This document shows positions 4,767-39,349 of a DNA stretch of 64,000 bases, in pieces. The position numbers and the translations under genes were made by a program. Positions within the stretch are counted from its first letter, which is position 1. Each line of letters begins with the position of its first letter. Under the pieces are notes generated by a model. It had not been told where the DNA came from and made no database searches. It saw nothing but the letters and a program-made list of their open reading frames with translations. The DNA is from Candidatus Zixiibacteriota bacterium. GTDB lineage: Bacteria > Zixibacteria > MSB-5A5 > GN15 > FEB-12. The stretch lies in the NCBI GenBank assembly GCA_041742355.1, contig JBGSIV010000299.1, positions 7,912-71,911 on the forward strand, written 5' to 3'.

Positions 4767-4964
4767 ACCGGGCTCCACGTTATCGGCGCAACTCAAATAT
4801 GGATCGTAACCTACACGAATCCGGCATCGCTGTCGTTAAATTTCACCGAAAAACTCCGCTATCGCTTTCCTGAAGTCAACTGATTGTATCCTAATTCGCT
4901 TCTCGACCCCTCATTGGTATACTGCAGTCGCTTCCCCTCTCCAACCCGCTTGTCCAAATCTGTC

Positions 4965-4993
4965 TTGACATGGATAATGCGCTCGATTATATG
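4965..4993 (+). promoter_or_regulatory. Putative sigma70-type promoter for the hdr-mvh operon
   Basis: TTGACA (4965-4970), a 17-nt spacer, then TATATG (4988-4993), about 90 nt upstream of hdrC. An alternative extended -10, TGGTATACT, lies at 4915-4923. Confidence 0.35.
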
Positions 4994-5079: not shown

Positions 5080-5670
5080 GTGGAAGAGAAGACCTCTCCC
5101 TTTCCCAGAAAGGAAGCCGAGCTTCGCGCCGCCTTCTGGGATCAAGTAAGCAGTTTTCCCGAAGGCCACAAGGTCAGGCTCTGCCTGCAGTGTGGTACCT
5201 GCACCGGGGCGTGTCCGGTTTCGTACGCGATGGACATCACCCCGCGCCAGACAATCGCCCTCTTTCGCGCCGGCCACCTCGAGGAGATCCTCAACAGCCG
5301 CGCGATCTGGATGTGCGCGTCCTGCTACTCGTGTACGGTCCGCTGCCCCGTCGGGATCAAGGTCACCGATACCATGTATGCGCTGAAGCGTGTGGCAATG
5401 GACAAGGGGATCTACCCGCGGCAGTTCCCGGTTCACACGCTGTCCCGGATATTTGTGAACTACATCAAGAAGTACGGGCGCAACTATGAGTTGGGACTGG
5501 GTACGCGGTATCTGCTGGCCACCCGACCTTCGAAGATGTTGGGAAGCGCCGGGCTCGGCCTGTCGCTCATTCGCAGCGGCCGGATGGGGTTGGTCCCGAA
5601 GAAGCTCAAGCGGGTCAACCAGATCCGTGCGATTATCGAGAAGGCGAATCAGTTCGGGGAGGGTGTATGA
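5080..5670 (+). CDS. hdrC: Heterodisulfide reductase subunit C-like (2x[4Fe-4S])
   Basis: Two CX2CX2CX3CP motifs: CLQCGTCTGACP and CASCYSCTVRCP. GTG start preceded by GGAGGAG. The stop overlaps the hdrB ATG (ATGA). Confidence 0.85.
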   Translation: MEEKTSPFPRKEAELRAAFWDQVSSFPEGHKVRLCLQCGTCTGACPVSYAMDITPRQTIALFRAGHLEEILNSRAIWMCASCYSCTVRCPVGIKVTDTMYALKRVAMDKGIYPRQFPVHTLSRIFVNYIKKYGRNYELGLGTRYLLATRPSKMLGSAGLGLSLIRSGRMGLVPKKLKRVNQIRAIIEKANQFGEGV

Positions 5671-6557
5671 TGGACTTTGCCTACTATCCCGGCTGCAGCC
5701 TCGAGCACACGGCCAGTCCTTACGACAAGTCGATCCGGGCGGTCTTTTCCTCCCTGGGGATCGGGCTGCATGAAATCGAAGACTGGAACTGTTGCGGCGC
5801 CACGATGTACATGTCGGTCAAGAAGATCGTCGGCTACTCGATCAGTGCCCGCAACCTCGCCCTTGCCCAGAATATGGGAATGCAGATCTGCGCCCCCTGT
5901 TCGAGTTGCTACACCATTCTCCAAAAGACCAACCGGCACATCGCTTGGGATCCCCGTGAACGCGCTAAGATAAACCAGGCACTGGCGGCGGCCGACCTGT
6001 CCTACGATACCCTCGTGGAGGTGCGGCACCCGCTTGATATCCTTGTGAACGACTATGGCCTACAGGAGATCATCGGCCGGGTGACAACCCCCCTGACCGG
6101 ACTCCGTGTGGCGCCGTACTATGGCTGCCAGGTCGTGCGGCCGCACGGCTTGTTCGACGATGTGGATGACCCGGTGACCATGGACAAGCTGCTGGCCTGT
6201 GTTGACGCCGAGGTGGTCAATTATCCCTGCAAAGTGCGCTGCTGCGGCGGGATGCTCATGATCACGCAGGAGGACCTTGCGCTCGGATTGAATATGAGAC
6301 TGCTCGAAGCGGCGGTGGAGAACGGCGCGCAGGTGATTGCGACTGCCTGTCCGCTGTGCCAGATGAACCTCGAGGCTTACCAGAAGAAGATCAACGCGAT
6401 GTTCAACCGCAACTTCCACATCCCGATCGTGTACTTCAGCCACCTGCTCGGGCTTGCCCTGGGACTCGATGCGAAGACTCTGGGGCTCGATCAGCTGTAT
6501 GTCCCGCTGGATCTGTCGCGGGCGGCGGTGCTTCAACCTTCAGAGGTGCACTCATGA
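5667..6557 (+). CDS. hdrB: Heterodisulfide reductase subunit B-like (two CCG domains)
   Basis: YYPGCSL, NCCGATMYM, YYGCQVVRP, VRCCGGMLM and CPLCQMNL match the duplicated CCG-domain pattern of HdrB. Confidence 0.9.
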   Translation: MMDFAYYPGCSLEHTASPYDKSIRAVFSSLGIGLHEIEDWNCCGATMYMSVKKIVGYSISARNLALAQNMGMQICAPCSSCYTILQKTNRHIAWDPRERAKINQALAAADLSYDTLVEVRHPLDILVNDYGLQEIIGRVTTPLTGLRVAPYYGCQVVRPHGLFDDVDDPVTMDKLLACVDAEVVNYPCKVRCCGGMLMITQEDLALGLNMRLLEAAVENGAQVIATACPLCQMNLEAYQKKINAMFNRNFHIPIVYFSHLLGLALGLDAKTLGLDQLYVPLDLSRAAVLQPSEVHS

Positions 6558-7531
6558 GCAACACACCCGAACACAACGGCAACGGCATCCGTGTCGGCGT
6601 CTATGTCTGCCACTGCGGGAGTAATATCGCGAAGACGGTCGATGTCGTCGCGGCGGCTGAAGCGGCAGGCCAACTCCCCGGTGTGGTAGTCGCGCGGCAC
6701 TACCGCTTCATGTGTTCCGACCCGGGACAAGAATTGATCCAGAAGGATATCAAGGAACTGAAGCTGAACCGCATTGTGGTCGCCGCCTGCAGCCCGCTCA
6801 TGCATGAGCAGACGTTCCGCAAGGCGGTCGAAGGGGCCGGCCTGAACCGTTATTTCTTCGAGATGGCCAATATCCGCGAACAGGTCAGCTGGGTGACGAT
6901 TGACTCCCGGGCTGCCACGGAGAAAGTGCACCGGTTGATCCGCGGGTCGGTCGCGCGCGTGCATTTTCATGAGCCGCTCGAGATGCGCCGGGTGCCGATC
7001 AAGAAACGCGTGATGATCGTCGGCGGCGGTATCGCCGGAATCGAGGCTGCCCTCCAGATCGCCGACGCCGGATTCGAGGTCGTCCTGGTGGAACGGGAGG
7101 CCTCTATCGGCGGTCACATGGCGCAGTTCGACAAGACTTTTCCGACGCTGGATTGTGCCGCCTGCATTCTCACCCCGAAGATGGTCGCAGTCGGGAAGCA
7201 CCCCAATATCCGCCTGATGACCTGGGCCGAGGTTGACCAGGTGACCGGCTTTGTGGGGGATTTCAAGATCAAAGTGCGCCGGAAAGCGCGCTACGTCGAT
7301 GTGGATAAGTGCAACAGCTGCGGCTCGTGCTACGAAGCCTGTCCCAGCCAGCCGTCGCCGCGGTTCCGCCGGCTCAAGCTTGGCTCGCAGGTAATCTGCG
7401 AGGGCAGGGCGCTGCAGATTCGCCATCCCAGCGTCCTTGGCCCCGAGCACGATCTGACCATGCTGACAGGCGCGCAACCGATGCCGGAGTCGGTGTCGGT
7501 GCCGGTGCCGGTGAAAGGAGGCGCCCGGTGA
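6554..7531 (+). CDS. hdrA: HdrA-like flavoprotein, N-terminal half only (N-terminal Cys cluster domain, FAD-binding fold, first ferredoxin motif)
   Basis: The true start is ATG 6554 (ATGA overlap with hdrB), not 6356. Motifs: VGVYVCHCGSNIAKTVD, VMIVGGGIAGIEAALQIADAG, GGHMAQFDKTFPTLDCAACILTPKM, VDVDKCNSCGSCYEACP. It ends after a roughly 55-aa tail with no recognisable motif. Confidence 0.85.
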   Translation: MSNTPEHNGNGIRVGVYVCHCGSNIAKTVDVVAAAEAAGQLPGVVVARHYRFMCSDPGQELIQKDIKELKLNRIVVAACSPLMHEQTFRKAVEGAGLNRYFFEMANIREQVSWVTIDSRAATEKVHRLIRGSVARVHFHEPLEMRRVPIKKRVMIVGGGIAGIEAALQIADAGFEVVLVEREASIGGHMAQFDKTFPTLDCAACILTPKMVAVGKHPNIRLMTWAEVDQVTGFVGDFKIKVRRKARYVDVDKCNSCGSCYEACPSQPSPRFRRLKLGSQVICEGRALQIRHPSVLGPEHDLTMLTGAQPMPESVSVPVPVKGGAR

Positions 7532-8049
7532 AGACCGCAGTTGACAATCACTATGACCTGGCCGAAGCGATCGATGCGATCGTAAGCAGGTATGAGGCGA
7601 AACAAACCGCCCTCATCATGATCCTTCAGGATGTTCAGAAGCACTACCGCTACCTCCCAGTCGAAGCCCTTCGGCTGGTGGCGAAGAGAATGGATCTGCC
7701 GGTCGCGCAGATTTTCGGAGTGGCTACATTCTACCGGTCATTCAGTTTGAAGCCCAAAGGGAAGAACCACGTGTGCGTCTGCACCGGGACTGCCTGCCAC
7801 GTGCGGCAGGCCGGGGTGATTGTGGATCGCCTGGAAACCGCCCTCAAAATCAAGGCGGGCGAGACCACCGGCGACCAGCAGTTCAGTCTCGAGACGGTAA
7901 ACTGCCTGGGCGCCTGCGCGCTTGGTCCGCTGGTGACGGCCAACGAGCAGTACTACGGGAATATGACGGTACGCAAGGTCGATCGGATGCTGGCGGAACT
8001 CCAGGGAACAATAGCCGAAGCAGACCCGGATGAAGAGGAGGAGGCATGA
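7528..8049 (+). CDS. NuoE/HoxE/HydC-like thioredoxin-fold [2Fe-2S] protein
   Basis: GTG 7528 start (GAAAGGAGG at 7512-7520; GTGA overlap with the upstream stop). Motifs: LIMILQDVQKHYRYLP, VCVCTGTACHVRQAG, VNCLGACALGP. Confidence 0.85.
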   Translation: MKTAVDNHYDLAEAIDAIVSRYEAKQTALIMILQDVQKHYRYLPVEALRLVAKRMDLPVAQIFGVATFYRSFSLKPKGKNHVCVCTGTACHVRQAGVIVDRLETALKIKAGETTGDQQFSLETVNCLGACALGPLVTANEQYYGNMTVRKVDRMLAELQGTIAEADPDEEEEA

Positions 8050-10055
8050 GCGACATGCGATTCACTTCAGCCGCAGATGTCGACGAGTATCGCCGGAAGC
8101 TGATCAGGCAGAGGAATGACGACAAGACGATCATCGCGCTCTGCGCCGGCACCGGTTGCCTCGCGTGCGGCTGCGAAGCGGTGAGCGAGGCTTTCCGAGA
8201 AGCTCTTGCCGGCAGCAACCTCGAGCGAGAGGTCGAACTCAAACGCACCGGCTGTCACGGCTTCTGCGAGCGCGGTCCGCTGGCCGTGATCCAGCCCCAG
8301 GGGGTCTTCTACCAGAAGCTCAAGCCGGCCGACGCGAAGCTCATTGTCGAGCAGACAATCAAAGGGGGGCAACTGGTCAAGCGGCTGCTTTACCGCGATC
8401 CGCAAACGAAGGAGACGATCGTCCACGAGAAGGACATCCCTTTCTACAAGAAGCAGATGCGCCTAATATTCGGCAAGAACGGCTTCATGGACCCGACCGC
8501 GATCAACGACTACATCGCACTCGGTGGGTACAGTGCTGTCGTCAAAGCGCTGCGGATGAAGCCCGAAGACATCATCAAAGAAATCACTCTCTCCGGCCTT
8601 CGCGGGCGCGGCGGCGGCGGGTATCCGACGGGACGGAAATGGGCTTCATGCCGCAAGGCCAAGGGCACCCCGAAGTACATCATCTGCAACGCCGATGAAG
8701 GCGATCCCGGCGCTTTCATGGACCGTTCGCTTTTGGAGGGGAATCCTCATTCGGTGGTCGAAGGGATGATTATCGGCGCCTATGCGATCGGCTGCAGCGA
8801 GGGGTTTGTGTACGTTCGCAATGAATATCCCCTTGCGGTGAAGAATCTCGTACACGCCATCAAGACGGCGCGTGAGTGCGGCCTGCTCGGCCAGAACATT
8901 CTCGGCACCGGCTTCAATTTTGACATTGATATATCACGCGGCGGCGGCGCTTTTGTCTGCGGTGAATCGACCGCCCTGATGGCGTCTCTCGAAGGAAAGA
9001 CCGGCGAGCCTCGCGCCAAGTACATCCACACGGTTGAGGCCGGCCTCTGGGACAAGCCGAGCTGTCTGAACAATGTCGAGACCTGGGCCAATGTCCCGAT
9101 CATCATCGAGATGAACGCGACCAAGTACGCCGAAATCGGCACCTCGGGTTCGAAAGGGACCAAGGTCTTCGCCCTGACCGGGAAGGTAAACAACACCGGT
9201 CTCGTCGAGGTCCCGATGGGGATCACGTTGCGCGAGATCCTCTACGATATCGGCGGCGGCGTGCGGGGGAAGAAACGCTTCAAAGCGGTCCAGACAGGCG
9301 GGCCATCCGGCGGCACGCTGATAGTGGAAACGGGGGAGAGGGGGATCCACGACAGCATGGTCGCCCACGGTGACCTGCGGGAGGATGAGGAAGCGGTCAA
9401 CCTGCTCGATCTGCCGGTCGATTTCGATGAGCTGACCAAGGACGGCTCGATGATGGTCTCTGGCGGCATGATCGTAATGGACGAAGACTCCTGCATGGTC
9501 GATGTCGCCCGGTACTTCCTGACCTTCCTCAAGGAGGAGAGCTGCGGCAAGTGTCTTCCCTGCCGCGAAGGTATCCGGCGGATGCTGGAGATCCTCACGC
9601 GCATCAGCGACGGCGAGGGGGCAATGGAGGATCTCGCGGAGCTCGAGGAGATGAGCCAGGTGCTGATCGACACCAGCCTGTGTCAGCTCGGCGGAAGCGC
9701 GCCCAACCCGATCCTCTCGACGATCCGCTACTTCCGCCAGGAGTACAAGGCGCACATTCTCGACAAGCGATGCCCGGCCGGCGTGTGCAAGGCCCTGGTC
9801 TCGCACGCGATCACCGAGAAGTGCACCGGCTGCCGCTCCTGCGCCAAGCCCTGTCCCACCGCGGCTATCATCGGCGAATCAAAAGGCCTGCACCACATCA
9901 TCCAGGAGAAGTGCATCCAGTGCGGCGCCTGCTACCAGATCTGCAAGCACGATGCCATCGTGCGGGTGAAGCGCGGCGACGGTGATGCGGTACAAGCCCG
10001 CGCCGCCGGACTGTGGAAAGGTAAACCCAAAGCCGAACCCGTGGCGGTCGCATAG
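8046..10055 (+). CDS. NuoF/HoxF/HydB-like NAD(H)-binding FMN subunit with an N-terminal Trx-like 2Fe-2S domain and a C-terminal 2x[4Fe-4S] domain
   Basis: GLRGRGGGGYPTGRKW (FMN), ICNADEGDPGAFMDR (NADH), ESCGKCLPCREG (4Fe-4S). N-terminal CAGTGCLACGC...CHGFCERGP. C-terminal CTGCRSCAKPCP and CIQCGACYQICK. Confidence 0.9.
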   Translation: MSDMRFTSAADVDEYRRKLIRQRNDDKTIIALCAGTGCLACGCEAVSEAFREALAGSNLEREVELKRTGCHGFCERGPLAVIQPQGVFYQKLKPADAKLIVEQTIKGGQLVKRLLYRDPQTKETIVHEKDIPFYKKQMRLIFGKNGFMDPTAINDYIALGGYSAVVKALRMKPEDIIKEITLSGLRGRGGGGYPTGRKWASCRKAKGTPKYIICNADEGDPGAFMDRSLLEGNPHSVVEGMIIGAYAIGCSEGFVYVRNEYPLAVKNLVHAIKTARECGLLGQNILGTGFNFDIDISRGGGAFVCGESTALMASLEGKTGEPRAKYIHTVEAGLWDKPSCLNNVETWANVPIIIEMNATKYAEIGTSGSKGTKVFALTGKVNNTGLVEVPMGITLREILYDIGGGVRGKKRFKAVQTGGPSGGTLIVETGERGIHDSMVAHGDLREDEEAVNLLDLPVDFDELTKDGSMMVSGGMIVMDEDSCMVDVARYFLTFLKEESCGKCLPCREGIRRMLEILTRISDGEGAMEDLAELEEMSQVLIDTSLCQLGGSAPNPILSTIRYFRQEYKAHILDKRCPAGVCKALVSHAITEKCTGCRSCAKPCPTAAIIGESKGLHHIIQEKCIQCGACYQICKHDAIVRVKRGDGDAVQARAAGLWKGKPKAEPVAVA

Positions 10056-10058
10056 GAG

Positions 10059-11822
10059 ATGAATATGGCACAGGTTCATGTCAACATAGACGGCCACGAT
10101 ATCGTGATGGAGGAAGGGGCTTATGTGCTCGAGGGAGCACGATCGCTGGGTATTCGCATCCCGACCCTCTGCCACTACCCGTACATGACGCCGTATGCCG
10201 CCTGCCGCATTTGCGCGGTGGAGGCCCGCGACGGCAAGGGCTGGACCAAGATCGTCACTGCGTGCAACTACCCCGTGTGGGACGGTCTGGAAATTCACAC
10301 CGGCACCCCGCGGGTGATGAACGCCCGGCGAGTCAACCTCGAGATGCTTATGAGCCGCAGTGCGCCGGTTCCGGTGCTGCAGCAACTCGCCGATGAACTT
10401 GGTATCGAGAAACCCCGCTGGGGCACGGGCGACGATACCTGCATCCTGTGCGGGTTGTGCGTGCGCGTGTGCGACGAAGTCGTCGGTGCGCACGCGCTGG
10501 CGTTCAGCGACCGGGGGATCTTCCGCAAAGTAGCGACTCCCTTCGGCGGCCAGAGCGATGACTGCATTCTCTGCGGGGCGTGTGCCAAAGTCTGCCCGAC
10601 CGGGCATATCGCCCTTGACGATATCAACCAGCGGCAGGTGGTTCACCGGGATATCAGCCTCGCTCCCAACTCGGCGATCAGCCTGCCGTTCCGACAGGCG
10701 GTGCCCAACGTGCCGAGGATAGAACCGGAGCACTGCATTCACTTCAACACCGGCGGCTGCAAAGTCTGCTCGCAGGTGTGTCCGAAAGACTGCATTCAAT
10801 ACGATGACACCGAACAGATCGAGGAGATCGAAGTGGGGGCGGTCATTCTCGCGACCGGCTTCGACAGCTTCGATCCGAGCGTGATGAAGCAGTACGGCTA
10901 CGGCCGGTATCCGAATGTGGTGACCGCCGAGCAGTTCGAGATGATGAACAACGCGGCCGGTCCGACCGGCGGGCGAATCCTGCTGGAGAACGGGGAAGAG
11001 CCGCGGGCGATTGGCATCGTCCACTGCGTCGGCAGCCGCGATCAGAACCATCATAAGTACTGCAGCCGCGTCTGCTGCATGTATGCCTTCAAGTTCTCAC
11101 ATTTGGTCAAGGAGAAGACGAAAGCCGAGGTCTACCAGTTCTACATCGACATCCGCAGCTATGGCAAGGGCTACGAGGAATTCTATCAGCGGATTCTCGA
11201 TGAGGACGTGAACATCATCCGGGGTCGCGGCGCCGAGGTCGTTCCGGCTTCGTACCGTCGGACCGAAGAGGGGCAACTCCTCGTGCGGTGTGAGGACACG
11301 CTCATCGGGAAATTCCGCGAGGTGCCGGTCGATATGGTGATCCTCTGCACCGCGCTGGAGGCCCGGGCCGACGCCAAGGAGGTAGCCCGCAAGTTCAATA
11401 TCTCCACCGGCGCGGACGGCTGGTTTATTGAAGCTCACCCGAAACTCGGGCCGGTGTCGACGACCACCGACGGCGTTTACCTCGCCGGCGCCTGCCAGAG
11501 TCCGAAGGACATTCCGGACACCGTCTCGCAGGGGGGCGCGGCCGCCTCGCACGTGCTCAAGCTCCTCTGCCTTGGCGAGATCCTGCTCGACGCGGCCTTT
11601 GCCGAGATTCGCGAGGAGAATTGCAGCGGCTGCCGCATCTGCAACGGGTTGTGTCCGTACAACGCCATCGATTTCATCGCCGAGAAGAAGGTGAGCAAGG
11701 TGAACGCGGCGATGTGCAAAGCCTGCGGAACCTGCGTGGCGGCCTGTCCCACCGGGGCCATTGTGGGCAAACACTTCACTGACGAGCAGATTTACGCTCA
11801 GATCGAGGGGATACTCACATGA
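10059..11822 (+). CDS. hdrA: Fusion protein: HoxU/NuoG-N-terminal-like 2Fe-2S plus 2x[4Fe-4S] domain joined to the C-terminal half of HdrA
   Basis: N-terminal region: TLCHYP..AACRICAV..VTACNYPV, CILCGLCVRVCDE, CILCGACAKVCP. From about residue 205 the sequence is HdrA-like: LPFRQAVPNVP, CKVCSQVCP, AVILATGFDSFDP, QYGYGRYPNVVT, HCVGSRDQNHHKYCSRVCCMY, GVYLAGACQSPKDIPDTV, CSGCRICNGLCP, CKACGTCVAACP. ATG 10065 has better spacing from AGGAG than ATG 10059. Confidence 0.85.
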   Translation: MNMAQVHVNIDGHDIVMEEGAYVLEGARSLGIRIPTLCHYPYMTPYAACRICAVEARDGKGWTKIVTACNYPVWDGLEIHTGTPRVMNARRVNLEMLMSRSAPVPVLQQLADELGIEKPRWGTGDDTCILCGLCVRVCDEVVGAHALAFSDRGIFRKVATPFGGQSDDCILCGACAKVCPTGHIALDDINQRQVVHRDISLAPNSAISLPFRQAVPNVPRIEPEHCIHFNTGGCKVCSQVCPKDCIQYDDTEQIEEIEVGAVILATGFDSFDPSVMKQYGYGRYPNVVTAEQFEMMNNAAGPTGGRILLENGEEPRAIGIVHCVGSRDQNHHKYCSRVCCMYAFKFSHLVKEKTKAEVYQFYIDIRSYGKGYEEFYQRILDEDVNIIRGRGAEVVPASYRRTEEGQLLVRCEDTLIGKFREVPVDMVILCTALEARADAKEVARKFNISTGADGWFIEAHPKLGPVSTTTDGVYLAGACQSPKDIPDTVSQGGAAASHVLKLLCLGEILLDAAFAEIREENCSGCRICNGLCPYNAIDFIAEKKVSKVNAAMCKACGTCVAACPTGAIVGKHFTDEQIYAQIEGILT

Positions 11823-12262
11823 GCTTTGAACCGAGAATCATCGGCTTCCTCTGCAACTGGTGCAGCTACACGGGAGCCGATCTGGCCGGTACCGCCCGGA
11901 TGAAGTACCCGCCCAACATGACCAGCATCCGCGTCATGTGCAGCGGGCGTATCGACCCCGGGTTCATCCTGAGCTCGTTTCGCAAGGGGGCCGACGGCGT
12001 GCTCGTGTGCGGCTGCCATCCGGGCGACTGCCACTATGTCGAGGGAAACTACAAGTGCCTGCGCCGGATGCTCCTGACCCGACAGCTGATCAAGGACTTC
12101 GGTATCGATCCCGTCCGGCTGCGCCTTGAATGGGTGTCGGCCTCGGAGGGAGCCCGCTTCCAGGAAGTCATTACCGAATTCACCGAGCAGATCCGGTCGC
12201 TCGGTCCACTCAAACTCGGCGGCCTCGTTCCCGAAGTGGAACGGACCGCAGTGCACACCTGA
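11819..12262 (+). CDS. mvhD: Methyl-viologen-reducing hydrogenase delta subunit (MvhD/FlpD family)
   Basis: IIGFLCNWCSYTGADLAG, IRVMCSGRIDP and GVLVCGCHPGDCHY form the canonical MvhD pattern. ATGA overlap with the upstream gene. Confidence 0.9.
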   Translation: MSFEPRIIGFLCNWCSYTGADLAGTARMKYPPNMTSIRVMCSGRIDPGFILSSFRKGADGVLVCGCHPGDCHYVEGNYKCLRRMLLTRQLIKDFGIDPVRLRLEWVSASEGARFQEVITEFTEQIRSLGPLKLGGLVPEVERTAVHT

Positions 12263-12273
12263 GCGAGGCATAC

Positions 12274-13245
12274 ATGGCAAAACCGAAACTGGCCATCTAC
12301 TGGGCGGCCTCCTGCGGCGGCTGTGATATCGCCATCCTCGATATCGAGGAGAAGATCCTCGGGGTGGTTGATTTCTTCGACCTGGTTTTCTGGCCGTGCG
12401 CAATGGATATCAAGTACGACGATGTCCGGGCTATGCCGGACAAGTCAATTACCCTGACGCTTTTCAACGGCGCTATCCGCAACTCGGAGAACTATGAGAT
12501 GGCCCACCTGCTGCGGCAGAAGTCGGTGGTGCTCTGTGCGTTCGGAAGCTGCGCTGCCGACGGATGCATACCGGGACTGGCCAATTTCTGCCACAAGCAG
12601 GACATTCTCGAGTATGTCTACCACAAATCCCCATCCCTGGACAATCCGAACGGGACCATTCCGCAAGTCGAATGCCGTGTCCCCGAAGGCCGGCTGACTA
12701 TTCCGGAGATGTGGGACAGCGTCTTCTCGCTCGGCCAAACCGTCCCGGTCGATGTGATCATTCCGGGCTGCCCGCCGCAGTCGGACCAGATTGCAGCGGT
12801 GGTAGCGACGGTGATCGACATCCTGAAAACCGGCAAGCCGCTGCCTCCTGCCGGAACCGTTCTCGGTGCGACCGACAAGAGCTGCTGCGACGAGTGCCCC
12901 CGCGAACGCAACGTCAAGAAGATCAAGAAATTCGTCCGTCCATTCGAGGTGGTCACTGATCCCGATATCTGTCTGATGGAGCAGGGGATCATCTGCAACG
13001 GCCCTGCGACCCGCTCCGGGTGCGGCGCGAAGTGCGTCAAAGCCGGCGTGCCCTGCCGTGGCTGCTACGGCCTGCCCATTAACGTCCGCGATCAGGGGGC
13101 CAAGATGGTTTCCGCTATCGCCAGTGTCATCGATTCCAACGATCCGGAGGAGATCGAACGGATTATCGCCACAATCCCCGATCCGGTCGGCACATTCTAC
13201 CGATTCAGCCTGCCCGGCTCGATGTTGCGGAGGGTGCAGTCATGA
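12274..13245 (+). CDS. mvhG: Group 3 [NiFe]-hydrogenase small subunit (MvhG-like)
   Basis: The true start is ATG 12274 (MAKPKLAIYWAASCGGCDIAILD), not 12130. Motifs: AFGSCAADGCIPG, IIPGCPP, and the C-terminal Cys clusters CCDECP..CNGPATRSGCGAKCVKAGVPCRGC. Confidence 0.85.
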   Translation: MAKPKLAIYWAASCGGCDIAILDIEEKILGVVDFFDLVFWPCAMDIKYDDVRAMPDKSITLTLFNGAIRNSENYEMAHLLRQKSVVLCAFGSCAADGCIPGLANFCHKQDILEYVYHKSPSLDNPNGTIPQVECRVPEGRLTIPEMWDSVFSLGQTVPVDVIIPGCPPQSDQIAAVVATVIDILKTGKPLPPAGTVLGATDKSCCDECPRERNVKKIKKFVRPFEVVTDPDICLMEQGIICNGPATRSGCGAKCVKAGVPCRGCYGLPINVRDQGAKMVSAIASVIDSNDPEEIERIIATIPDPVGTFYRFSLPGSMLRRVQS

Positions 13246-14723
13246 AGGAAATCGTCATCGATCCGATCACCCGCCTGGAGGGACACGGCAAGATCCACCT
13301 GTTCGTCAAGGACGACGGCAACCTGGCCAACGCCTATTTCCAGGTGCCCGAGCTCCGGGGTTTCGAACGATTCTGCGTGGGGCGGCCGGTCGAGGAAATG
13401 TGCCGCATCACGACGCGCATTTGTGGCGTTTGCCCCGATGCCCATCACATGGCGGCTGCGAAGGCGGCCGACGCGGTCTACGGCGTAACCATCCCATCGG
13501 CAGCGCGGAAGCTCCGCGAACTCATGTACAACGGCTTCTACGCCGGCGACCACACGACCCACTTCTACGCCCTCGGCGGACCAGATTTCGTGTGCGGTCC
13601 CGACGCACCCAAGGCCGAGCGGAATATCCTTGGAGTCATTGCCAAGGTCGGGCTCGATGCCGGCAAGGCGGTGATCGCCCAACGCGCACGAGGCCAGCGG
13701 ATAATCGAAATCATCGGCGGCAAGAAAGTCCACCCGGTGACCTCCCTGCCCGGCGGGTTGTCGAAGCGGGTCACGAAAGAAGAGCAGCAGGAAGTTATCG
13801 AGATCGGCCGCCAGATGGTCGAGTTCGGCAAGTTCACGATCAAGGTTCTCAATGACATCGTCCTCGCCAACAAGGCCTACGTCGATCTCATCCTGTCCGA
13901 CATGTTTACCCACAAGACCTACAACATGGGCCTGGTCGACGCCAACAACAAGGTGACATTCTACGACGGCATGGTCCGGGTCACTGGACCCGACGGCAAG
14001 GAGCGGCACAAGTACGAGCCGAGGGACTATCTCCAGTATGTGGCCGAACATGTCGAGCCATACTCTTACCTGAAGTACCCGTACCTCAAACAGGTTGGAT
14101 GGAAGGGGATGGTCGACGGAATCGAATCGGGTGTCTACAAGGCGAGCCCGTTGAGTCGGCTGAACGTATCTGACGGCATGGCGACGCCGCTGGCGCAGGC
14201 CGAATACGAGCGCTTCTACGAAACGCTGACCGGCGATCGCTCAGGCCGTACGCCGGTCCACTCAACGCTCGCCACCCACTGGGCCCGCGTGGTCGAACTA
14301 GTGTTTGCCTGCGAGGCCGTTCTCCAGCAGGCTCAGGACGATGAAATTACGTCCGACAAGGTGCTTAATCCGCCGACGGGGATTGTCGGCGAGGGGGTCG
14401 GCATTGTCGAAGCCCCGCGCGGCACCCTCACGCATCACTACAAGACCGACGGGAACGGTATCATCACAGAGGCCAACCTGATTGTCGGCACGACCAACAA
14501 CAACGCCGCCATTTCGATGTCGATCAAGAAAGCGGCGGAAGGTCTTATCCGAGCCGGTCAGCCGATAACCGACGGCGTGCTCAACAGAATCGAAATGGCG
14601 TTCCGGGCGTACGACCCGTGTTTCGGTTGTGCCACTCACAGCCTGCCGGGCGAAATGCCTTTGGAACTGATCATACATGAGGCGGAGAGCGGCGAGGTGA
14701 TCCAAACCGTCAGGAGGTTCTGA
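13242..14723 (+). CDS. mvhA: Group 3 [NiFe]-hydrogenase large subunit (MvhA-like)
   Basis: N-terminal RLEGHGKI and RICGVCPDAHH (RxCGxCxxxH). C-terminal DPCFGCATH (DPCxxCxxH), followed by a roughly 27-aa extension that would be removed by the endopeptidase. Confidence 0.9.
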   Translation: MKEIVIDPITRLEGHGKIHLFVKDDGNLANAYFQVPELRGFERFCVGRPVEEMCRITTRICGVCPDAHHMAAAKAADAVYGVTIPSAARKLRELMYNGFYAGDHTTHFYALGGPDFVCGPDAPKAERNILGVIAKVGLDAGKAVIAQRARGQRIIEIIGGKKVHPVTSLPGGLSKRVTKEEQQEVIEIGRQMVEFGKFTIKVLNDIVLANKAYVDLILSDMFTHKTYNMGLVDANNKVTFYDGMVRVTGPDGKERHKYEPRDYLQYVAEHVEPYSYLKYPYLKQVGWKGMVDGIESGVYKASPLSRLNVSDGMATPLAQAEYERFYETLTGDRSGRTPVHSTLATHWARVVELVFACEAVLQQAQDDEITSDKVLNPPTGIVGEGVGIVEAPRGTLTHHYKTDGNGIITEANLIVGTTNNNAAISMSIKKAAEGLIRAGQPITDGVLNRIEMAFRAYDPCFGCATHSLPGEMPLELIIHEAESGEVIQTVRRF

Positions 14724-15229
14724 TGAGTTCGACGCTGGTGCTGTGCCTTGGCAACGACGTCCTGTCGGATGATGCATTCGGCTTTCACCTGGCCCGGCGA
14801 CTGCAGGAACAGGAGGAACTGGAGGGCAAAGCGGATGTGCAGTTTGCCCCGTTGGCAGGCTTCAATCTGCTGCCGCTGCTCCAGAACCACGAACGGCTCC
14901 TGATTGTCGATACCATCGTCACCGGTCGGGCGCTGCCGGGGACCATCCACTTCTTTCCGATGGGCGAAGAGACTCCCTCGCGTCTGTTGACCTCCAGCCA
15001 CCAGATCAGCCTGCCCCACGCGCTTGCCCTCGGACGGGCGCTCGGCATGGCCATGCCGGAGAGCATCGATGTTCTGGCGGTGGAAGCGCAGGATGTGTGC
15101 ACGCTCAGTGAGGAGATGACTCCGCCGGTGGAGGAGGCACTCGAACCGGCCCTCAGCCGGGTCGCCGAATGGATCGCCACGTCACTATCGGAGGAATACC
15201 ATGGAGGATTCGAACCGCAGGTCAACTAA
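14723..15229 (+). CDS. Hydrogenase maturation endopeptidase (HycI/HoxW/FrhD family)
   Basis: LVLCLGNDVLSDDAFG (GNxxxxDDxxG), LLIVDTI and SSHQISL. The ATG shares 1 nt with the mvhA stop. Confidence 0.85.
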   Translation: MSSTLVLCLGNDVLSDDAFGFHLARRLQEQEELEGKADVQFAPLAGFNLLPLLQNHERLLIVDTIVTGRALPGTIHFFPMGEETPSRLLTSSHQISLPHALALGRALGMAMPESIDVLAVEAQDVCTLSEEMTPPVEEALEPALSRVAEWIATSLSEEYHGGFEPQVN

Positions 15230-15506
15230 GCCGCCCGACTGCACCCCGCAGCGATGTCCCGAATGCCAGGGACGAGGATGGACCGACAACCGCTGCCTGA
15301 CGCCTGACCATGCGCACCGGTGCTCGTACTGCGACGGCAAGGGGTTTAATGCCCTGGAAAACACCTGTTTCGCGTGCCACGGTACGGGGCAGATAGAAGT
15401 GCGGCAAATCGATAAAGCGCCTTGCCCGCTCTGCTCCGGAGCCGGCGTCTACCCGGTGCCGGAATCTATGACGCTGGCCGAATTCGCTTTTCGTCCGCGT
15501 TCCTGA
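15201..15506 (+). CDS. Stand-alone DnaJ-type cysteine-rich zinc-finger protein (4x CxxCxGxG)
   Basis: CPECQGRG, CSYCDGKG, CFACHGTG, CPLCSGAG. GGAGG lies 6 nt upstream of the ATG. It overlaps the protease gene by 29 nt. Confidence 0.6.
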   Translation: MEDSNRRSTKPPDCTPQRCPECQGRGWTDNRCLTPDHAHRCSYCDGKGFNALENTCFACHGTGQIEVRQIDKAPCPLCSGAGVYPVPESMTLAEFAFRPRS

Positions 15507-15702: not shown

Positions 15703-18700
15703 TCAGCGTTGTAGCTTGAAGATGAAATCGAGCCCGCTCGTCTTGCTGTCCCCTTGAAGAAGCTGCAGAAAGAGATGTTTGTTCAACTCGTACTCCAGCG
15801 TGACTATGTCTGGAGTCGCCTCCTGTCCCGGCGCGCTGCCGAGCGAACGCTGGTAGCTCATGAAGAGATCGTTGGTCAGGTACTTGCCGATCGTCATCGT
15901 AGCTGAGGCCAGGCTGCCCTGTGAATTGATATCGACGACATCGAGACCAAGCTTGCTGCCGAGGGTCTGGGACAGCTGGTTGGAGAGCATATTGGCGGCA
16001 GCCCCTTTCGCCAAATCAGCCTGCGCCGCGCCGGCATCGGACTGCTGTCCCGACGTCAGCTCGTCCATGCTGCGCCCGTACATGACATAGGCGATGGCGT
16101 CTTTCTCCTCGATCGCGGCATCATCAAGCGTGAACTGGAGCACCGGCGTGAACGCCTTGCCGGAGACCTCGAGCTTGAGGGTTCGCTTCTCACGTTCCGC
16201 CGTGCGAAACACGTACTGCGCCTGCATCGAGACCTCCGGATTGTACTCCGCGCCCCCCTGGAACAGCAGATTCCCCTGCACGATCGTGAAGACCTTCCCG
16301 TAGAGATTGTACTGGCCGCGTACAATCCGGAGCGGTCCGAACAGCTCGAAATCGGGGCCGTTCTTGACCAGATCGAGATCTCCGTCGCCGATTTCAAGAT
16401 TCATATCCGGGCTGCGCAGCCAGGTATTGCGTGGTATCAGGACTTTGAAACTGCCGCGCAGGTTCTCGAACCAGTCGACCTCAGCGGTGTCAATCTCGGA
16501 CTTGTCGACCACGAGGGCATTTCCCGTGGAGTCGGCCAAAGAGTCGGCTGGCAGCGTGGCCCTGACCAGCATCGGCATCGACTGGTCGGCCATGGCCTGG
16601 GCGGCGGCGGCTTTCTCCATGAGGGCCGGGAGAAAGAAGCTCGATCGAAGAATTGTGATATTGCCCGAGTACCTCGGCTCCGCGCTGTTGCCGGTCAGAC
16701 GCGCATCGCCGGAGATGGATACCTGATAGTCTTTGTGCTTAATCACCTCAAACGAGTTCGCGAGGAAATCAAATTCGGTCGTCTTGATCACGCCGGTGAG
16801 GAGGTCCCGCTCGAACTGCAACGATCCCGAGCCGGTCAATATTCCCTTGTCCCTCACAGCCTGCAGGGTGTCCAGGGTGATGACGGCGTCGTGTACCGAG
16901 AGACCGACCAGCATGTCTGAGTACTCGATACCGTGCGCCGAAATTGAAACCGAGCCGTCGCGCAGGCCGAACTGGCCGCCCACTTTGGGAGCATCAATGG
17001 TTCCGGCGATATTGATATCGGCGGTGATCAACCCCGCGACATTGCTGAGCGGTTGGCCGGAAGCCTGAACGACCGAAAGGGGGAGGCCGGAGGTCCTGAC
17101 ATCGACTTCAAATGGCCGGTCCCGGTGAACTGCGTCCCCGGTGTTGTCGAGCGCAAGGTTGACCGGAAGGAGGCCGGTAATGGCCAGGCTGTCCGCTTGG
17201 TGCGGCACCAGCGACAGGCTCCAGGCGAGGTTCTCGGCCTCGTAGTCGAAACCGGCGTGAATGGCGCGATACGAGAACTGGTTGACCAGGCCGCTGTCGA
17301 TCGCCATCCGTCCGGAGAGAATCGGCGACGACGCCGATCCGCCGAGGTGCATACTGGCGGTCAACAGTCCGGCTACGCTGTCCGGGATATCGAAGGCCGC
17401 GACCAACGGCCTGAGGTCGAGACGATCGATAGCCAATGAGAGATCCTCGGTTCCGGTCATCGAAAACAGCCCCGCCACTGAAATGGTTTGCTGCTCTCCG
17501 GCAGCGGCGACAGGTGAACTCAGGATCAGATTCTCGATACGGTAGTCCTCGCCGATCACGGCAAGACGCGTTTCCGGACTGCCTCCGCGCCACTGCTGCG
17601 TCCCGAAGTCAAAGGCGATAGCCGGAACCACCGCGCTGATCGTGCTGTCGATAGCCACCATGCTCTCGAAGTGAGCGCTGATTCCCGGTCGGTAGAATCC
17701 ATCAAGGACAATGGCCGCCGAGGCTCCGGTGAAATCCGAAGTGGCGATAACCGAATCCAGCACGAGGCTACCGGCTATCAGGCGATATGCCGATATCCGA
17801 GCGTTGCCGCTCAGGCTGTCCCCCAGCGACAGCGCGGTCAGTTGTGCCTCCACCGTTTCGACGCCGGACGTGTTATACCACAGGTTATTCAGGGCCAGGT
17901 CACCACCAATCGACAGCGAATCAAGAGCACCATTGACAGTTCCGTCGAGCGTGCCGGCTCCCGAGAGCGTATCGATACCGGTGAGCATTTCTCGCAGGGG
18001 GGAAAGGGACTTCAAACGCACCGCATACATCAGGGCGTGGGTGCCGTCGACCTCTCCCTGGCCGACCGCGCTCAGGCTCCCCACCGCCGATGCGGTATGC
18101 AGAGTATCCAATCGATAAGAGTCGGCAGTGAAATCCAAACGCGCGAAAGCTGTGTCAACGTTCACGCCGGAAAACGTCGACGGCGAGAGATGGAGTTGCG
18201 CGTTCCCGCTCAGACGCGTCGTATCAAAGCCGCTGCCGTTCACCAGCGCGGTCAAATTCAGGTCGGAGATCATACTGTCCGTCTGAAGCAGGGGGGCCAG
18301 ATTGAGGTGCGAGAATGTCAATCCGATTTCGTAGCTCTGGGAATCGAGTATGTCGGTTACGCTGAAGACAGAATTCAGGCCGCCAAAGGCACCGGAGGCG
18401 TCAAGTGAACCAACGAGATCCCCCCCCGCGTAGCGGGCGGTGCCGGTCATCTGGCCGAGCGACCGGCCGAGAGCACCAACATCTCCAAGGGCAATATCCA
18501 TTGCGACATCTGCGTCCTCGGCAGTAAATCCACTCCCGGCCAGCGTGATCGTACCGTTCGCGCGGTAGTCGGCAGCGGTGTCTCCCAGCCAGTGGGCCAG
18601 GTCGAAGTTCGTTAGGCCGATATCGAGGTAGTACCGCACGAGATCATGCGTAGCGACGTTCATTGCTTTGCTGACATTGGCGACACTGAGGCCGAGGTCT

Positions 18701-39119: not shown

Positions 39120-39349
39120 GGCCGGCAAACGGCCCGGGAACACGCCTTCCCGAGACGGGTCTTCTCCCAGCGAATCATGAGAGCGGGGGGCCTGCCATCG
39201 TCCGCTTTCGTGTTCGCCACCCCAAAAGAATCATTGACTATATTGGGCCATATAGTATCTTATTGCCGTGCGAACGCGAGCTGCCCGGCCACCCGGCAAT
39301 CGCCCTGAGTTGGACCTGTTATCTCAAACAACCTTACGCGGAGTGCAGT

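Follow-up and report, generated by a model that had tools for sequence, protein, structure and literature searches.

In a window of 64,000 nucleotides, the whole stretch of DNA analyzed here, the coding sequence of HdrA is divided into two complementary halves, with neither overlap nor gap, as alignment to solved HdrA chains confirms. The break falls inside the inserted ferredoxin domain, and genes of a Bfu-type module, predicted to be electron-bifurcating, lie between the halves. We propose, with a probability of roughly 0.6, that ten translationally coupled genes (5080-15229) encode one soluble supercomplex of Mvh hydrogenase, HdrABC, and Bfu, in which H2, a disulfide, NAD(H), and ferredoxin are connected. 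The arrangement would point to two different electron-bifurcating machines hard-wired in one enzyme. No description of a split-HdrA/Bfu arrangement was found in the literature searched. The features of the locus are listed below; NCBIfam scores of all subunits lie under the curated cut-offs.

5080..5670, + strand: hdrC, 2x[4Fe-4S] subunit (Pfam Fer4_8/Fer4_17; NCBIfam CoB_CoM_SS_C top match, under cut-off)
5667..6557, + strand: hdrB, two CCG domains, predicted disulfide-reducing site (Pfam CCG, two stretches, E 4e-23; NCBIfam CoB--CoM heterodisulfide reductase subunit B, 1e-55, under cut-off)
6554..7531, + strand: N half of hdrA, 325 aa (phmmer to 5ODC_A residues 5-260, E 7e-97)
7346..7528, + strand: C-terminal tail of the N half, 60 aa, including the Shine-Dalgarno sequence of bfuC
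7528..8049, + strand: bfuC, NuoE/HoxE/HydC-like [2Fe-2S] subunit, GTG start (Pfam 2Fe-2S_thioredx, 7e-50; NCBIfam HoxE/NuoE)
8046..10055, + strand: bfuB, HydB-type NuoF homologue (full-length alignment, all Cys motifs conserved)
10059..10643, + strand: BfuA/NuoG/HoxU-like N-terminal FeS domain of the fusion gene (9MQX_A over aa 7-201, 3e-34; Pfam Fer2_4, Fer4_7)
10644..11822, + strand: C half of hdrA, fused in frame (5ODC_A residues ~262-649, E 3e-108)
11819..12262, + strand: mvhD, [2Fe-2S] adaptor between hydrogenase and HdrA (Pfam FlpD, 1e-54; NCBIfam VhuD and the MvhD part of HdrA2)
12274..13245, + strand: mvhG, [NiFe]-hydrogenase small subunit (Pfam Oxidored_q6; NCBIfam VhuG, 4e-61, under cut-off)
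13242..14723, + strand: mvhA, [NiFe]-hydrogenase large subunit, Mvh/group 3c-like (best PDB match MvhA, 5ODC_F, 1e-120)
14723..15229, + strand: hydrogenase maturation endopeptidase, HycI family (Pfam HycI, 2e-11; position common to related loci)

Rereading the sequence placed every ORF and motif where the preliminary description had put it. Its view that the reading frames are intact and coupled was borne out by the ORF check and by 4-nt start/stop overlaps at hdrC/hdrB (the hdrC stop overlapping the hdrB start), hdrB/hdrA-N, hdrA-N/bfuC, bfuC/bfuB, fusion/mvhD, and mvhG/mvhA. The overlap of the bfuC start with the hdrA-N stop is GTGA (7528-7531), with AGGAGG upstream at 7516-7521. The fusion gene is preceded by a 3-nt gap, and mvhG starts at an internal ATG at 12274 (homologues, 323 aa).

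Two complementary halves of HdrA

The N half contains an N-terminal [4Fe-4S] domain and the first part of the TrxR-like FAD domain, whose GxGxxG motif reads GGGIAG (aa 157-162); of the two Cys motifs in the inserted ferredoxin domain, it holds the first (C253-P264, nt 7310-7345). It matches solved HdrA chains over aa 13-267 only, corresponding to 5ODC_A 5-260 and 8RVU_a 13-268. In the 587-aa fusion protein, a NuoG/BfuA-like FeS domain (aa 1-195) is followed by the inserted ferredoxin domain's second Cys motif (C226-x7-C234-x2-C237-x3-C241-P, nt 10734-10784), the remaining FAD domain with [4Fe-4S] ligands C323, C335, C339, and C340 plus K345 and E294, and a C-terminal 2x[4Fe-4S] ferredoxin domain. 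Fusion residues 168-585 match 5ODC_A 245-649 (3e-108); the generic CX2CX2CX3CP motif alone accounts for the first ~28 residues of this match, and HdrA homology proper begins at ~aa 196.

These alignments put the break inside the inserted ferredoxin domain, after the first of its two CX2CX2CX3CP motifs and before the second, in agreement with the preliminary description. That the halves are complementary and do not overlap, as it also held, is evident as well from the NCBIfam HdrA2 profile (777 positions), which is tiled by the N half (1-261), the fusion (240-640), and MvhD (647-774). On L036, a bacterial HdrA that is not split, the N half spans residues 12-280 and the fusion gives a BLAST match at 252-664; the generic motif again explains the first ~28 residues of the latter, which places the start of real homology at ~residue 281. 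The possibility that the ORFs are two independent, complete HdrA paralogues was rejected on these alignments, and the E-values together with conservation in hundreds of independent assemblies exclude a chance match. Both halves are under purifying selection, and every FeS cysteine is retained. When each half was folded alone, the prediction was poor exactly where it would be expected to pack on the other half, a weak hint of such packing. The break site coincides with the insertion site of GltD/NfnB-like domains in other HdrAs, and low-potential electrons leave HdrA by way of the inserted ferredoxin domain (PMC9012536; bioRxiv 10.64898/2026.04.10.717634).

The tail of the N half had been described as ~55 aa with no recognizable motif. 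In the close clade, however, the 60 aa are conserved (CPSxPxPxxRRLxLGxxVxREG...GPxHDLTxLTGAQPMPE in the alignment), whereas in distant relatives the tail is absent, short, or different. In the half folded alone, its pLDDT is low, with a weak beta-hairpin at aa 272-284.

Conservation of the arrangement

The best homologues of both halves are themselves half-size, at 314-334 aa for the N half (120/120) and 579-604 aa for the fusion (120/120). For each half, over 120 protein clusters keep such lengths, and another 120 proteins homologous to a divergent N half are likewise half-size. The ten-gene order is identical beside unrelated flanks in L001, L003, L005, L010, L013, L015, and L085, and is the same up to the ends of loci L020, L023, and L031. 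A survey for other split hdrA genes with nuoEF-like genes between the halves recovered the arrangement, again with unrelated flanks, in lineages labeled as at least 12 phyla, with many uncultured bacterial phyla represented; this recurrence served as the test of chimerism in place of read mapping. The conserved half-size lengths and shared gene order show that the split is neither decay, as the earlier interpretation also held, nor misassembly; alignment, conservation, and co-occurrence suggest that a single clean insertion event may have made the split.

All half-size N halves whose neighborhood was looked up share a cluster with a fusion gene (6/6), and the two genes occur together in every cluster readable far enough. 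Three genomes (L029, L042, and L045) encode in-frame HdrA-N~BfuC fusions, a physical link of the N half to the Bfu module. The gap of some relatives also holds six regulatory genes; the regulatory cassette inside the cluster of relatives is H2-sensor-like, of a kind we take to be that of HydABC operons.

The Bfu module and the hydrogenase

Pfam homology supports the naming of the genes in the gap as NuoE- and NuoF-like, but they are BfuC and BfuB (HydC/HydB type) rather than plain NuoE and NuoF. BfuB contains an N-terminal [2Fe-2S] Trx-like domain, an FMN/NADH core, an N3-type [4Fe-4S] cluster, and a C-terminal 2x[4Fe-4S] domain. Among solved structures it is closest to bifurcating B subunits (9MQX_B, 3e-224; 7T2R_B, 3e-221; 8A6T_B, 1e-214), whereas plain Nqo1/NuoF reach only ~1e-101. 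The BfuA-like domain has cysteines for a [2Fe-2S] cluster (C38, C49, C52, and C69) and two [4Fe-4S] clusters (C128-C138 and C169-C179), with no His-ligated cluster in this domain, matching the Type-2 BfuA cluster set defined in PMC9304861. Every full-length fusion examined retains these cysteines; the L034 and L043 fusions lack the [2Fe-2S] part and keep only the 4Fe-4S motifs. The three parts of the NAD(H) dehydrogenase module proposed earlier are present, but as a bifurcating Bfu type and not a simple NuoEF/HoxEFU diaphorase. Judged by homology, the module is a BfuC/BfuB pair plus a Type-2 BfuA-like domain, of the electron-bifurcating HydBC type; BfuC and BfuB form the core of what is the fourth family of electron-bifurcating enzymes.

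K345 and E294 of the C half correspond to K409 and E356 of 5ODC, two hallmark residues of bifurcating FAD (PMC12054007), and both are conserved with all cluster cysteines in the 32 fusion variants examined. Compared with its best match, MvhA, the hydrogenase large subunit is more distant from that of NiFe-HydABCSL (7T2R_D, 5e-109) and from HoxH (5XF9_D, 1e-93).

Proposed supercomplex, related systems, and alternatives

The proposed supercomplex would join three modules, namely an Mvh-type [NiFe] hydrogenase (MvhAGD), HdrABC, and a module of the Bfu type for NAD(H) and ferredoxin (BfuC, BfuB, and BfuA-like FeS), with the C half of HdrA joined covalently behind the BfuA-like FeS chain. If the halves re-associate, the TrxR-like FAD domain and its FAD site would be built from two polypeptides, as alignment, conservation, and co-occurrence suggest. 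Ferredoxin folds of the 2x[4Fe-4S] kind use 3+1 cysteines per cluster, and both clusters of the inserted ferredoxin domain would be shared by the two chains in this way. By analogy with the solved Hdr-Mvh complex, the high-potential electron would pass through the FAD-domain cluster and HdrC to the disulfide site of HdrB, and the low-potential electron would exit via the inserted ferredoxin domain into the BfuA clusters and the BfuBC core, not to free ferredoxin. There, FMN and its clusters would split electrons between NAD+ and ferredoxin. Such wiring would couple the four substrates reversibly via two bifurcation centers in series. With H2 as donor, reduction of NAD+ and of the disulfide are both exergonic, and the energetic gain of a second bifurcation is not obvious; the 64,000-nt window gives no other hint of the disulfide substrate.

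All six subunits of methanogen HdrABC-MvhAGD (5ODC, 8RVU; H2:CoB-CoM heterodisulfide,ferredoxin reductase) have homologues here, the hdr genes likewise lie ahead of the mvh genes, and all HdrA cluster ligands, K409/E356, and Cys197 (C204 here) are retained. Here, in contrast, HdrA is split in two genes, the host is bacterial, and the exit that reduces ferredoxin is joined to a BfuA-like FeS chain plus BfuBC core. With the Bfu family (NiFe-HydABCSL of Acetomicrobium mobile, 7T2R; WOR-Bfu, 9MQX) the locus shares full-length BfuB and BfuC with all cluster motifs and a BfuA-like part with the Type-2 set (A1, A2, A4; PMC9304861), but the "third substrate" side of BfuA is half an HdrA instead of a direct hydrogenase or tungsten enzyme, and the hydrogenase is of the Mvh type, joined through MvhD. 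HoxEFUYH (group 3d; 5XF9) has the same order of NuoE-, NuoF-, and HoxU-like, small-subunit, large-subunit, and protease genes, and NAD(H) is a predicted substrate here also; the present locus differs in the extra bifurcating-type FeS domains of its NuoF homologue, its MvhA-like large subunit, and its MvhD and Hdr parts. GltD/NfnB-insert HdrAs (ANME-1 HdrA9-11; "type III"; bacterial proteins of 1120-1166 aa), sometimes linked to mvhADG, have a module that reacts with NAD(P)H at this very site, between the Cys motifs. Each of them is one polypeptide into which a single flavoprotein domain is inserted, whereas here the gene is split around a three-part, multi-subunit Bfu-type insert that would also be ferredoxin-reactive. 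BCRII (BamBCDEFGHI) is the only characterized complex to unite HydBC/Bfu and a bifurcating flavin of the HdrA type with an MvhD-like adaptor and a subunit resembling HdrBC; its Bfu enters on the donor side, with BamI leading to BamF and to the C-terminal ferredoxin domain, and its inserted ferredoxin domain feeds a tungsten enzyme (bioRxiv 10.64898/2026.04.10.717634). BamE is a fused HdrA dimer, whereas HdrA here is split, with Bfu fused at the inserted ferredoxin domain and the hydrogenase at the donor side; since Bfu feeds HdrA at the input side in BCRII, the BfuA domain may have a different three-dimensional placement here.

The most serious alternative, possible though clearly less probable than the proposed flow, keeps the supercomplex and permutes its roles. 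Bfu would be the electron input, from NADH alone or from NADH and reduced ferredoxin by confurcation, and the HdrA flavin would bifurcate, downhill to the disulfide and by way of MvhD and hydrogenase to protons, making an H2-evolving NADH sink in a fermenter. The confurcating Bfu input to the HdrA-type flavin of BCRII (bioRxiv 10.64898/2026.04.10.717634) fits this scheme, as does NADH as proposed mid-potential donor for disulfide and H+ reduction by archaeal type III HdrA, in which a GltD insert occupies the same site, linked to mvhADG (PMC12054007). So do the H2-sensor-like cassette of relatives and the oligopeptide transporter and glutamate dehydrogenase encoded in the window, suitable for a fermentative heterotroph. 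Gene order and homology, however, assign the donor position to MvhD and hydrogenase, and NADH together with reduced ferredoxin would be able to reduce protons with no disulfide involved.

It is unlikely that the halves stay apart, with BfuCB, the fusion, and MvhDGA as a Bfu-type [NiFe] hydrogenase, the HdrA C half as only an FeS wire and MvhD docking scaffold, and HdrCB plus the N half separate or vestigial. Such a hydrogenase without Hdr is known from A. mobile (NiFe-HydABCSL), and in many loci six other genes separate hdrCB and the N half from bfuC, but the C half keeps the bifurcating-FAD residues and FAD-domain cluster in all variants, and the N half, only half a flavin domain and half a ferredoxin domain, is strongly conserved, accompanies the fusion gene, and is sometimes fused to BfuC. 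Somewhat less likely still is a non-bifurcating, Hox-like NADH diaphorase in an H2:NAD+/disulfide oxidoreductase without ferredoxin; the gene order recalls hoxEFUYH-hoxW, with HoxE and HoxU among the best NCBIfam names, yet BfuB has two extra domains, an N-terminal [2Fe-2S] and a C-terminal 2x[4Fe-4S] domain, that are missing from non-bifurcating homologues (PMC9304861), the E-value margin in favor of bifurcating relatives is ~100 orders of magnitude, and the large subunit is nearer MvhA than HoxH. The proposed supercomplex accords with the complementary halves, their conserved lengths and order, 6/6 co-clustering, the HdrA-N~BfuC fusions, conserved K345/E294, a HydB-type BfuB, Type-2 BfuA clusters, and a low-potential exit at the site of GltD/NfnB-like inserts. 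A pseudogene, frameshift, or assembly chimera joining a broken hdrA to unrelated genes is highly improbable: the unusual arrangement itself is all that speaks for it, and against it stand intact, overlapping ORFs, the same half-size proteins and order in hundreds of independent assemblies, an architecture conserved across phyla beside unrelated flanks, and uniform GC over both junctions (0.59-0.63).

A divided HdrA within a ten-gene operon

Ten plus-strand genes occupy positions 5080-15229 and have neighbouring start and stop codons that overlap or nearly touch. Each has a Pfam-supported identity, and the fourth and fifth belong to the bifurcating BfuABC family (HydABC type).

Genes of the operon
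5080-5670, +, hdrC
5667-6557, +, hdrB
6554-7531, +, HdrA N half
7528-8049, +, NuoE-like gene (bfuC)
8046-10055, +, NuoF-like gene (bfuB)
10059-11822, +, NuoG-like::HdrA C-half fusion
11819-12262, +, mvhD (Pfam FlpD/MvhD, 1e-54)
12274-13245, +, [NiFe] small subunit
13242-14723, +, [NiFe] large subunit
14723-15229, +, HycI-type protease

The GTG start of bfuC overlaps the stop codon of the N half (GTGA, 7528-7531), with AGGAGG 6 nt upstream, and the bfuC ribosome-binding site sits in the last codons of the N-half tail. GC content is even across the operon region (0.59-0.63). Promoter-like sites are no commoner than in shuffled sequence; upstream of hdrC there is one at 4950-4978. The sole plus-strand terminator-like site within the operon is a weak hairpin inside mvhG (12366-12382). 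The last 29 nt of the protease gene are shared with a 101-aa Cys-rich ORF (15201-15506, +), which has matches in the DnaJ CXXCXGXG zinc-finger and Anti-TRAP families. This ORF could serve the operon in maturation or as a chaperone, or have nothing to do with it.

We compared the N half and the fusion with all PDB sequences. In the N half, the HdrA match is limited to aa 13-267, corresponding to residues 5-260 of 5ODC_A, the HdrA of the methanogen HdrABC-MvhAGD complex (E 7e-97). In the fusion, aa 7-201 match 9MQX_A, the NuoG-like BfuA chain of WOR-Bfu (3e-34), and aa 168-585 match residues 245-649 of 5ODC_A (3e-108), with real homology from about aa 196. We rejected the apparent overlap with the first Cys motif of HdrA, as those ~28 residues from aa 168 reflect generic CX2CX2CX3CP similarity in a motif that belongs to the BfuA-type 2x[4Fe-4S] domain, to which the 9MQX_A match extends. 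The NCBIfam HdrA2 profile is tiled by the N half (1-261), the fusion (240-640), and MvhD (647-774). On the unsplit bacterial HdrA of L036, a plain hdrCBA-mvhDGA operon labelled Krumholzibacteriota, the N half covers residues 12-280, and the BLAST match of the fusion spans 252-664, of which the part from about residue 281 is true homology. All three comparisons bear out the proposal of the preliminary description that the halves are complementary and do not overlap; covering complementary stretches of HdrA, they are therefore not paralogues.

The alignments place the break in the inserted ferredoxin domain, in the loop that follows its first Cys motif; this domain is the low-potential exit of HdrA. 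All four HdrA Cys motifs are present, with inserted-domain motif 1 on ORF 6554-7531 and motif 2 on ORF 10059-11822, and no single polypeptide of ~650 aa unites the inserted and C-terminal 2x[4Fe-4S] domains in one chain. NCBIfam HdrA models gave 378 and 429 bits against cut-offs of 1100-1400, and no NCBIfam model reached its cut-off for the N half or the fusion. The N half has the N-terminal [4Fe-4S] domain and the equivalent of the trans-ligand Cys197; across 50 N halves, C54, C79, C201, and C204 never vary, and C19 and C21 almost never do. Features of the TrxR-like FAD domain are spread over the two polypeptides, with GGGIAG (GxGxxG) on the N half. C323, C335, C339, C340, K345, and E294 of the fusion are conserved in 32 variants, and every cluster cysteine is also kept in all fusion variants. 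K345 and E294 correspond to K409 and E356 of 5ODC, which are specific to the bifurcating flavin (PMC12054007). The Cx7Cx2Cx3C spacing of the second motif was rejected as a split-specific trait, since unsplit bacterial HdrA shares it.

The only stretch recognisable on both sides of the cut is a short LxLG, seen as RRLKLG in the N-half tail (7346-7390) and as DISLAP/EIxLGP in the fusion (10644-10690). In the L036 comparison both segments align to KLSLGP of unsplit HdrA, and the pair may be a small duplication left by the gene-splitting event. The tail itself (aa 265-325) had been described as having no recognisable motif. Its sequence is conserved within the close clade and short or different in distant relatives, which makes it a clade-specific addition; it is possibly a docking arm.

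Structure prediction for the separate chains was of uneven quality. The fusion folded alone gave a poor model (pLDDT 55), and the N half was good only at aa 10-180 and 205-245, comprising the N-terminal domain and the start of the Rossmann fold, with low confidence around FDKTFPTLDC, the Cys motif, and the tail. The poorly modelled regions fit two incomplete domains that need each other, a pattern that shallow alignments could also produce.

Identity of the inserted module and the hydrogenase

The insert had been taken for a nuoE/nuoF-like NAD(H) module. Genes of these two kinds are indeed present, but the NuoF-like protein is of the bifurcating BfuB type. Pfam finds in it an extra [2Fe-2S] thioredoxin-like domain at the N terminus and a 2x[4Fe-4S] domain at the C terminus. 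Its best solved matches are 9MQX_B (3e-224), 7T2R_B of the NiFe-HydABCSL complex of Acetomicrobium mobile (3e-221), and HydB 8A6T_B (1e-214), with NuoF/Nqo1 at only ~1e-100, and the alignment to 9MQX_B and 7T2R_B spans the whole protein with the Cys motifs conserved. Extra BfuB clusters set bifurcating BfuB apart from nonbifurcating homologues (Schut et al. 2022, PMC9304861). By Pfam domain set and alignment, the FMN/NADH core and all five clusters of BfuB are predicted, as is the [2Fe-2S] cluster of BfuC.

The first 195 residues of the fusion contain one [2Fe-2S] motif and two CX2CX2CX3C motifs, and the HX3CX2CX5C motif of a His-ligated cluster is absent from this region. This leaves clusters A1, A2, and A4 only, the set of Type 2 BfuA, which feeds electrons from a third substrate (PMC9304861); here, the domain is joined to the HdrA C half and does not stand free.

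The hydrogenase large subunit best matches MvhA 5ODC_F (1e-120), followed by the NiFe-HydABCSL large subunit (5e-109) and HoxH 5XF9_D (1e-93). The best NCBIfam names are VhuA, VhuG, and VhuD, all below cut-off. On best matches and gene context, the enzyme is probably of group 3c (Mvh-type), with MvhA/MvhG-like subunits, MvhD, and linkage to hdr. A group 3d Hox hydrogenase does not fit: HoxH ranks below MvhA, the NuoF homologue is of the bifurcating type, and MvhD and Hdr are encoded alongside. With homologues of Hdr, Mvh, and Bfu in one operon, the locus is, by homology, a hybrid of the three modules. A group 3c hydrogenase preceded by hdr genes without an assigned function has been noted in Caldithrix abyssi, Thermoanaerobaculum aquaticum, and Ca. 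Acetothermum (PMC5317091).

Recurrence of the split and variants at the cut site

Both halves keep their reduced size among relatives. The best 120 homologues of the fusion share 66-95% identity and all fall within 579-604 aa, the best 120 of the N half all within 314-334 aa, and the best 120 of a divergent N half within 275-331 aa with three exceptions. The ten-gene order is repeated with unrelated flanks on the 4.3-Mb contig of L001 (73% identity) and in the Eisenbacteria MAG of L003 (67% identity). As the half-size lengths and gene order recur in unrelated contexts, decay and misassembly, which the preliminary description had argued against or wished to see checked, are excluded for practical purposes.

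A scan of relatives with one genome per species returned 576 related stretches; the full NuoG-like::HdrA-C fusion is encoded in about 35 of the best 80 of these 576. By their depositors' labels, these carriers are Zixibacteria, Ignavibacteria, GN15, Calditrichaeota, Armatimonadetes, Acidobacteriota, Aminicenantes, Chloroflexota, Desulfobacterota, Planctomycetota, Verrucomicrobiota, and Eubacteriales, together with two archaea. KSB1, Eisenbacteria, and Thermoanaerobaculaceae appear among the named fusion homologues, and the cluster-member names include no cultured organism. The public names of the halves are generic ("FAD-dependent oxidoreductase", "4Fe-4S dicluster protein", or "HdrA"), so metabolic reconstructions count an ordinary Mvh-Hdr or miss the halves.

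Several loci vary the arrangement at the cut. In a Desulfobacterales MAG (L029), a Thermoplasmata MAG (L042), and an unclassified MAG (L045), the N half and BfuC form one in-frame ORF of 427-464 aa; with the BfuA::HdrA-C fusion, both cut ends are therefore covalently tied to Bfu subunits. A Syntrophobacteraceae MAG (L034) encodes an unsplit 780-aa HdrA (ORF from 2811) in which an extra 2x[4Fe-4S] unit, homologous to fusion aa 127-194, lies at the cut site between the inserted-domain motifs; this protein is a possible evolutionary intermediate. HdrAs of 1120-1166 aa have a ~500-aa insert at the same site, which matches the NfnB/GltD-like insertion of ANME-1 and "type III" HdrA (type III: PMC12054007). 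Judged from these sequences, the loop between the inserted-domain Cys motifs is evidently a place where NAD(P)H-reactive modules have been grafted in repeatedly.

In four Desulfobacterota loci (L024, L027, L029, and L043), the hydrogenase is replaced: after the cassette come mvhD, an HdrC-like gene, and a double-HdrA ORF of 700-1255 aa (1010-1255 aa in L024 and L027) that resembles BamE of the class II benzoyl-CoA reductase BamBCDEFGHI (BCRII). In L043 the N half adjoins the fusion, with bfuCB absent between them. BfuB is enlarged to 1013-1064 aa in L088 (15524-18607), L089 (15566-18607), L018, L023, L025, and L029; in L088 and L089, Pfam identifies the C-terminal extension as GltD/NfnB-like (Fer4_20, Pyr_redox_2), a possible second nicotinamide site.

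About a dozen loci had suggested "Type II" operons lacking hdrCB and the N half, an idea that would have spoken against reassembly of the halves and that we dropped after six look-ups based on N halves. All six half-size N halves on long contigs share a cluster with a fusion gene. The NuoE/NuoF-like genes lie directly 3' of the N half in two of them (L085 and the P0453 contig), and a six-gene cassette intervenes in the other four (L086, L087, L088, and L089), in the order DRTGG, HATPase_c_2, a HydS-like sensory [FeFe]-hydrogenase homologue, DRTGG, PHP, and HATPase_c. This cassette, at about 9850-14700 in locus coordinates, sits between the N half and bfuC and leaves the hdrA halves about 7.7 kb apart. 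Such cassettes accompany HydABC operons. In the dozen "Type II" loci, the ORFs upstream of the NuoE-like gene encode a PHP protein, HATPase-type proteins, and a HydS-like homologue of the same kind. The fusions of these loci, too, retain every cluster cysteine together with K345 and E294. Their N half most likely lies just outside the 6-kb flanks examined, pushed past them by the six-gene cassette.

Four Dehalococcoidia loci (L035, L046, L047, and L052) show breaks of another kind, with ORFs for unsplit HdrA, MvhD, and sometimes MvhA interrupted at single in-frame stops. The HdrA break falls exactly at Cys204, the equivalent of trans-ligand Cys197 of methanogen HdrA. From the ORF boundaries, this looks like selenocysteine recoding, not gene splitting.

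Predicted electron path and its alternatives

Flavin-based electron bifurcation is the source of low-potential electrons in anaerobes and is found in four enzyme families. In the operon studied here, the donor and high-potential parts are all conserved; the cut falls at the low-potential exit, which is joined there to the FeS chain of BfuA. From this we infer three elements of a mechanism. The N half and the fusion would re-form HdrA, and the split protein is predicted to bind FAD and to bifurcate. Each cluster of the inserted domain would be held by 3+1 cysteines from two chains; such ligation is the rule in 2x[4Fe-4S] ferredoxin folds. Low-potential electrons would then pass straight into the Bfu core and be shared between NAD+ and ferredoxin, the Bfu module being predicted to couple NAD(H) and ferredoxin with a third substrate, and the other electron would go via HdrBC to a disulfide. 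The rest of the 64-kb window holds no clue to the disulfide substrate. The implied stoichiometry would be 4 H2 + 2 RSSR + NAD+ + Fd(ox) -> 4 RSH + NADH + Fd(red), reversible in principle. By our own reasoning, moving the mean potential of the low branch up from about -500 mV to about -410 mV would be an advantage at low H2 pressure.

Our boldest reading, to which we assign a probability of roughly 0.4, is that the operon encodes a covalently hard-wired tandem of the crossed-potential FAD of HdrA and the FMN/FeS "flavobicluster" of Bfu. Bfu would be attached where low-potential electrons leave HdrA, by way of a ferredoxin domain in which two polypeptides contribute ligands to each of the two [4Fe-4S] clusters. 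Such an enzyme would handle four substrates (H2, disulfide, NAD(H), and ferredoxin), would be widespread among uncultured bacterial phyla and present in some archaea, and would be wired unlike BCRII. The main rival to the predicted electron path is a permuted wiring, with the BfuA domain placed, or electrons entering, differently. It draws its weight from BCRII, in which the Bfu module enters on the donor side, whereas here the BfuA chain is fused at the low-potential exit. BCRII also differs in its tungsten AOR-type BamB/BamC and its fused double-HdrA BamE, neither of which is encoded in the operon.

A Bam-Bfu class is named among the Bfu enzymes by Schut et al. 2022 (PMC9304861), one supplement of which contains no Hdr entry. 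Before the 2026 preprint on BCRII, complexes with two different bifurcating modules were unreported, according to that preprint (bioRxiv 10.64898/2026.04.10.717634). Full-text searches turned up no account of a split HdrA that has Bfu or NuoEF genes in between, an absence that is no proof of novelty. The closest published statements are the Bam-Bfu class, the BCRII preprint, type III HdrA, and the group 3c hydrogenases with hdr genes upstream (PMC5317091). All the modules are known; neither the split nor the fusion point nor the implied wiring is described in the literature searched.

If the hard-wired tandem exists, it would be a second solution to double bifurcation beside BCRII, with other wiring and a much wider distribution, the operon being present in Zixibacteria, KSB1, Eisenbacteria, Ignavibacteria, Acidobacteriota, Aminicenantes, Chloroflexota, Planctomycetota, Verrucomicrobiota, Desulfobacterota, and some archaea. 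An HdrA cut precisely where its low-potential electrons leave, and joined there to the next FeS chain, would amount to a natural experiment on electron hand-off from HdrA and would test whether intersubunit clusters can make a ferredoxin fold. It would also offer abundant uncultured sediment bacteria a testable route for balancing H2, NAD(H), ferredoxin, and the thiol/disulfide pool.

Directly downstream of the operon, on the opposite strand, lie genes for a TamB-like protein (1299 aa; 15703-19602, -) and an Omp85/POTRA protein (616 aa; 19631-21481, -), which show that the host has an outer membrane. Farther along, a 2419-aa ORF at 30365-37624 (-) lies near a gene at 38813-41674 (+) for a 953-aa protein with a Peptidase_S74 domain (endosialidase chaperone, tail-fibre-like).
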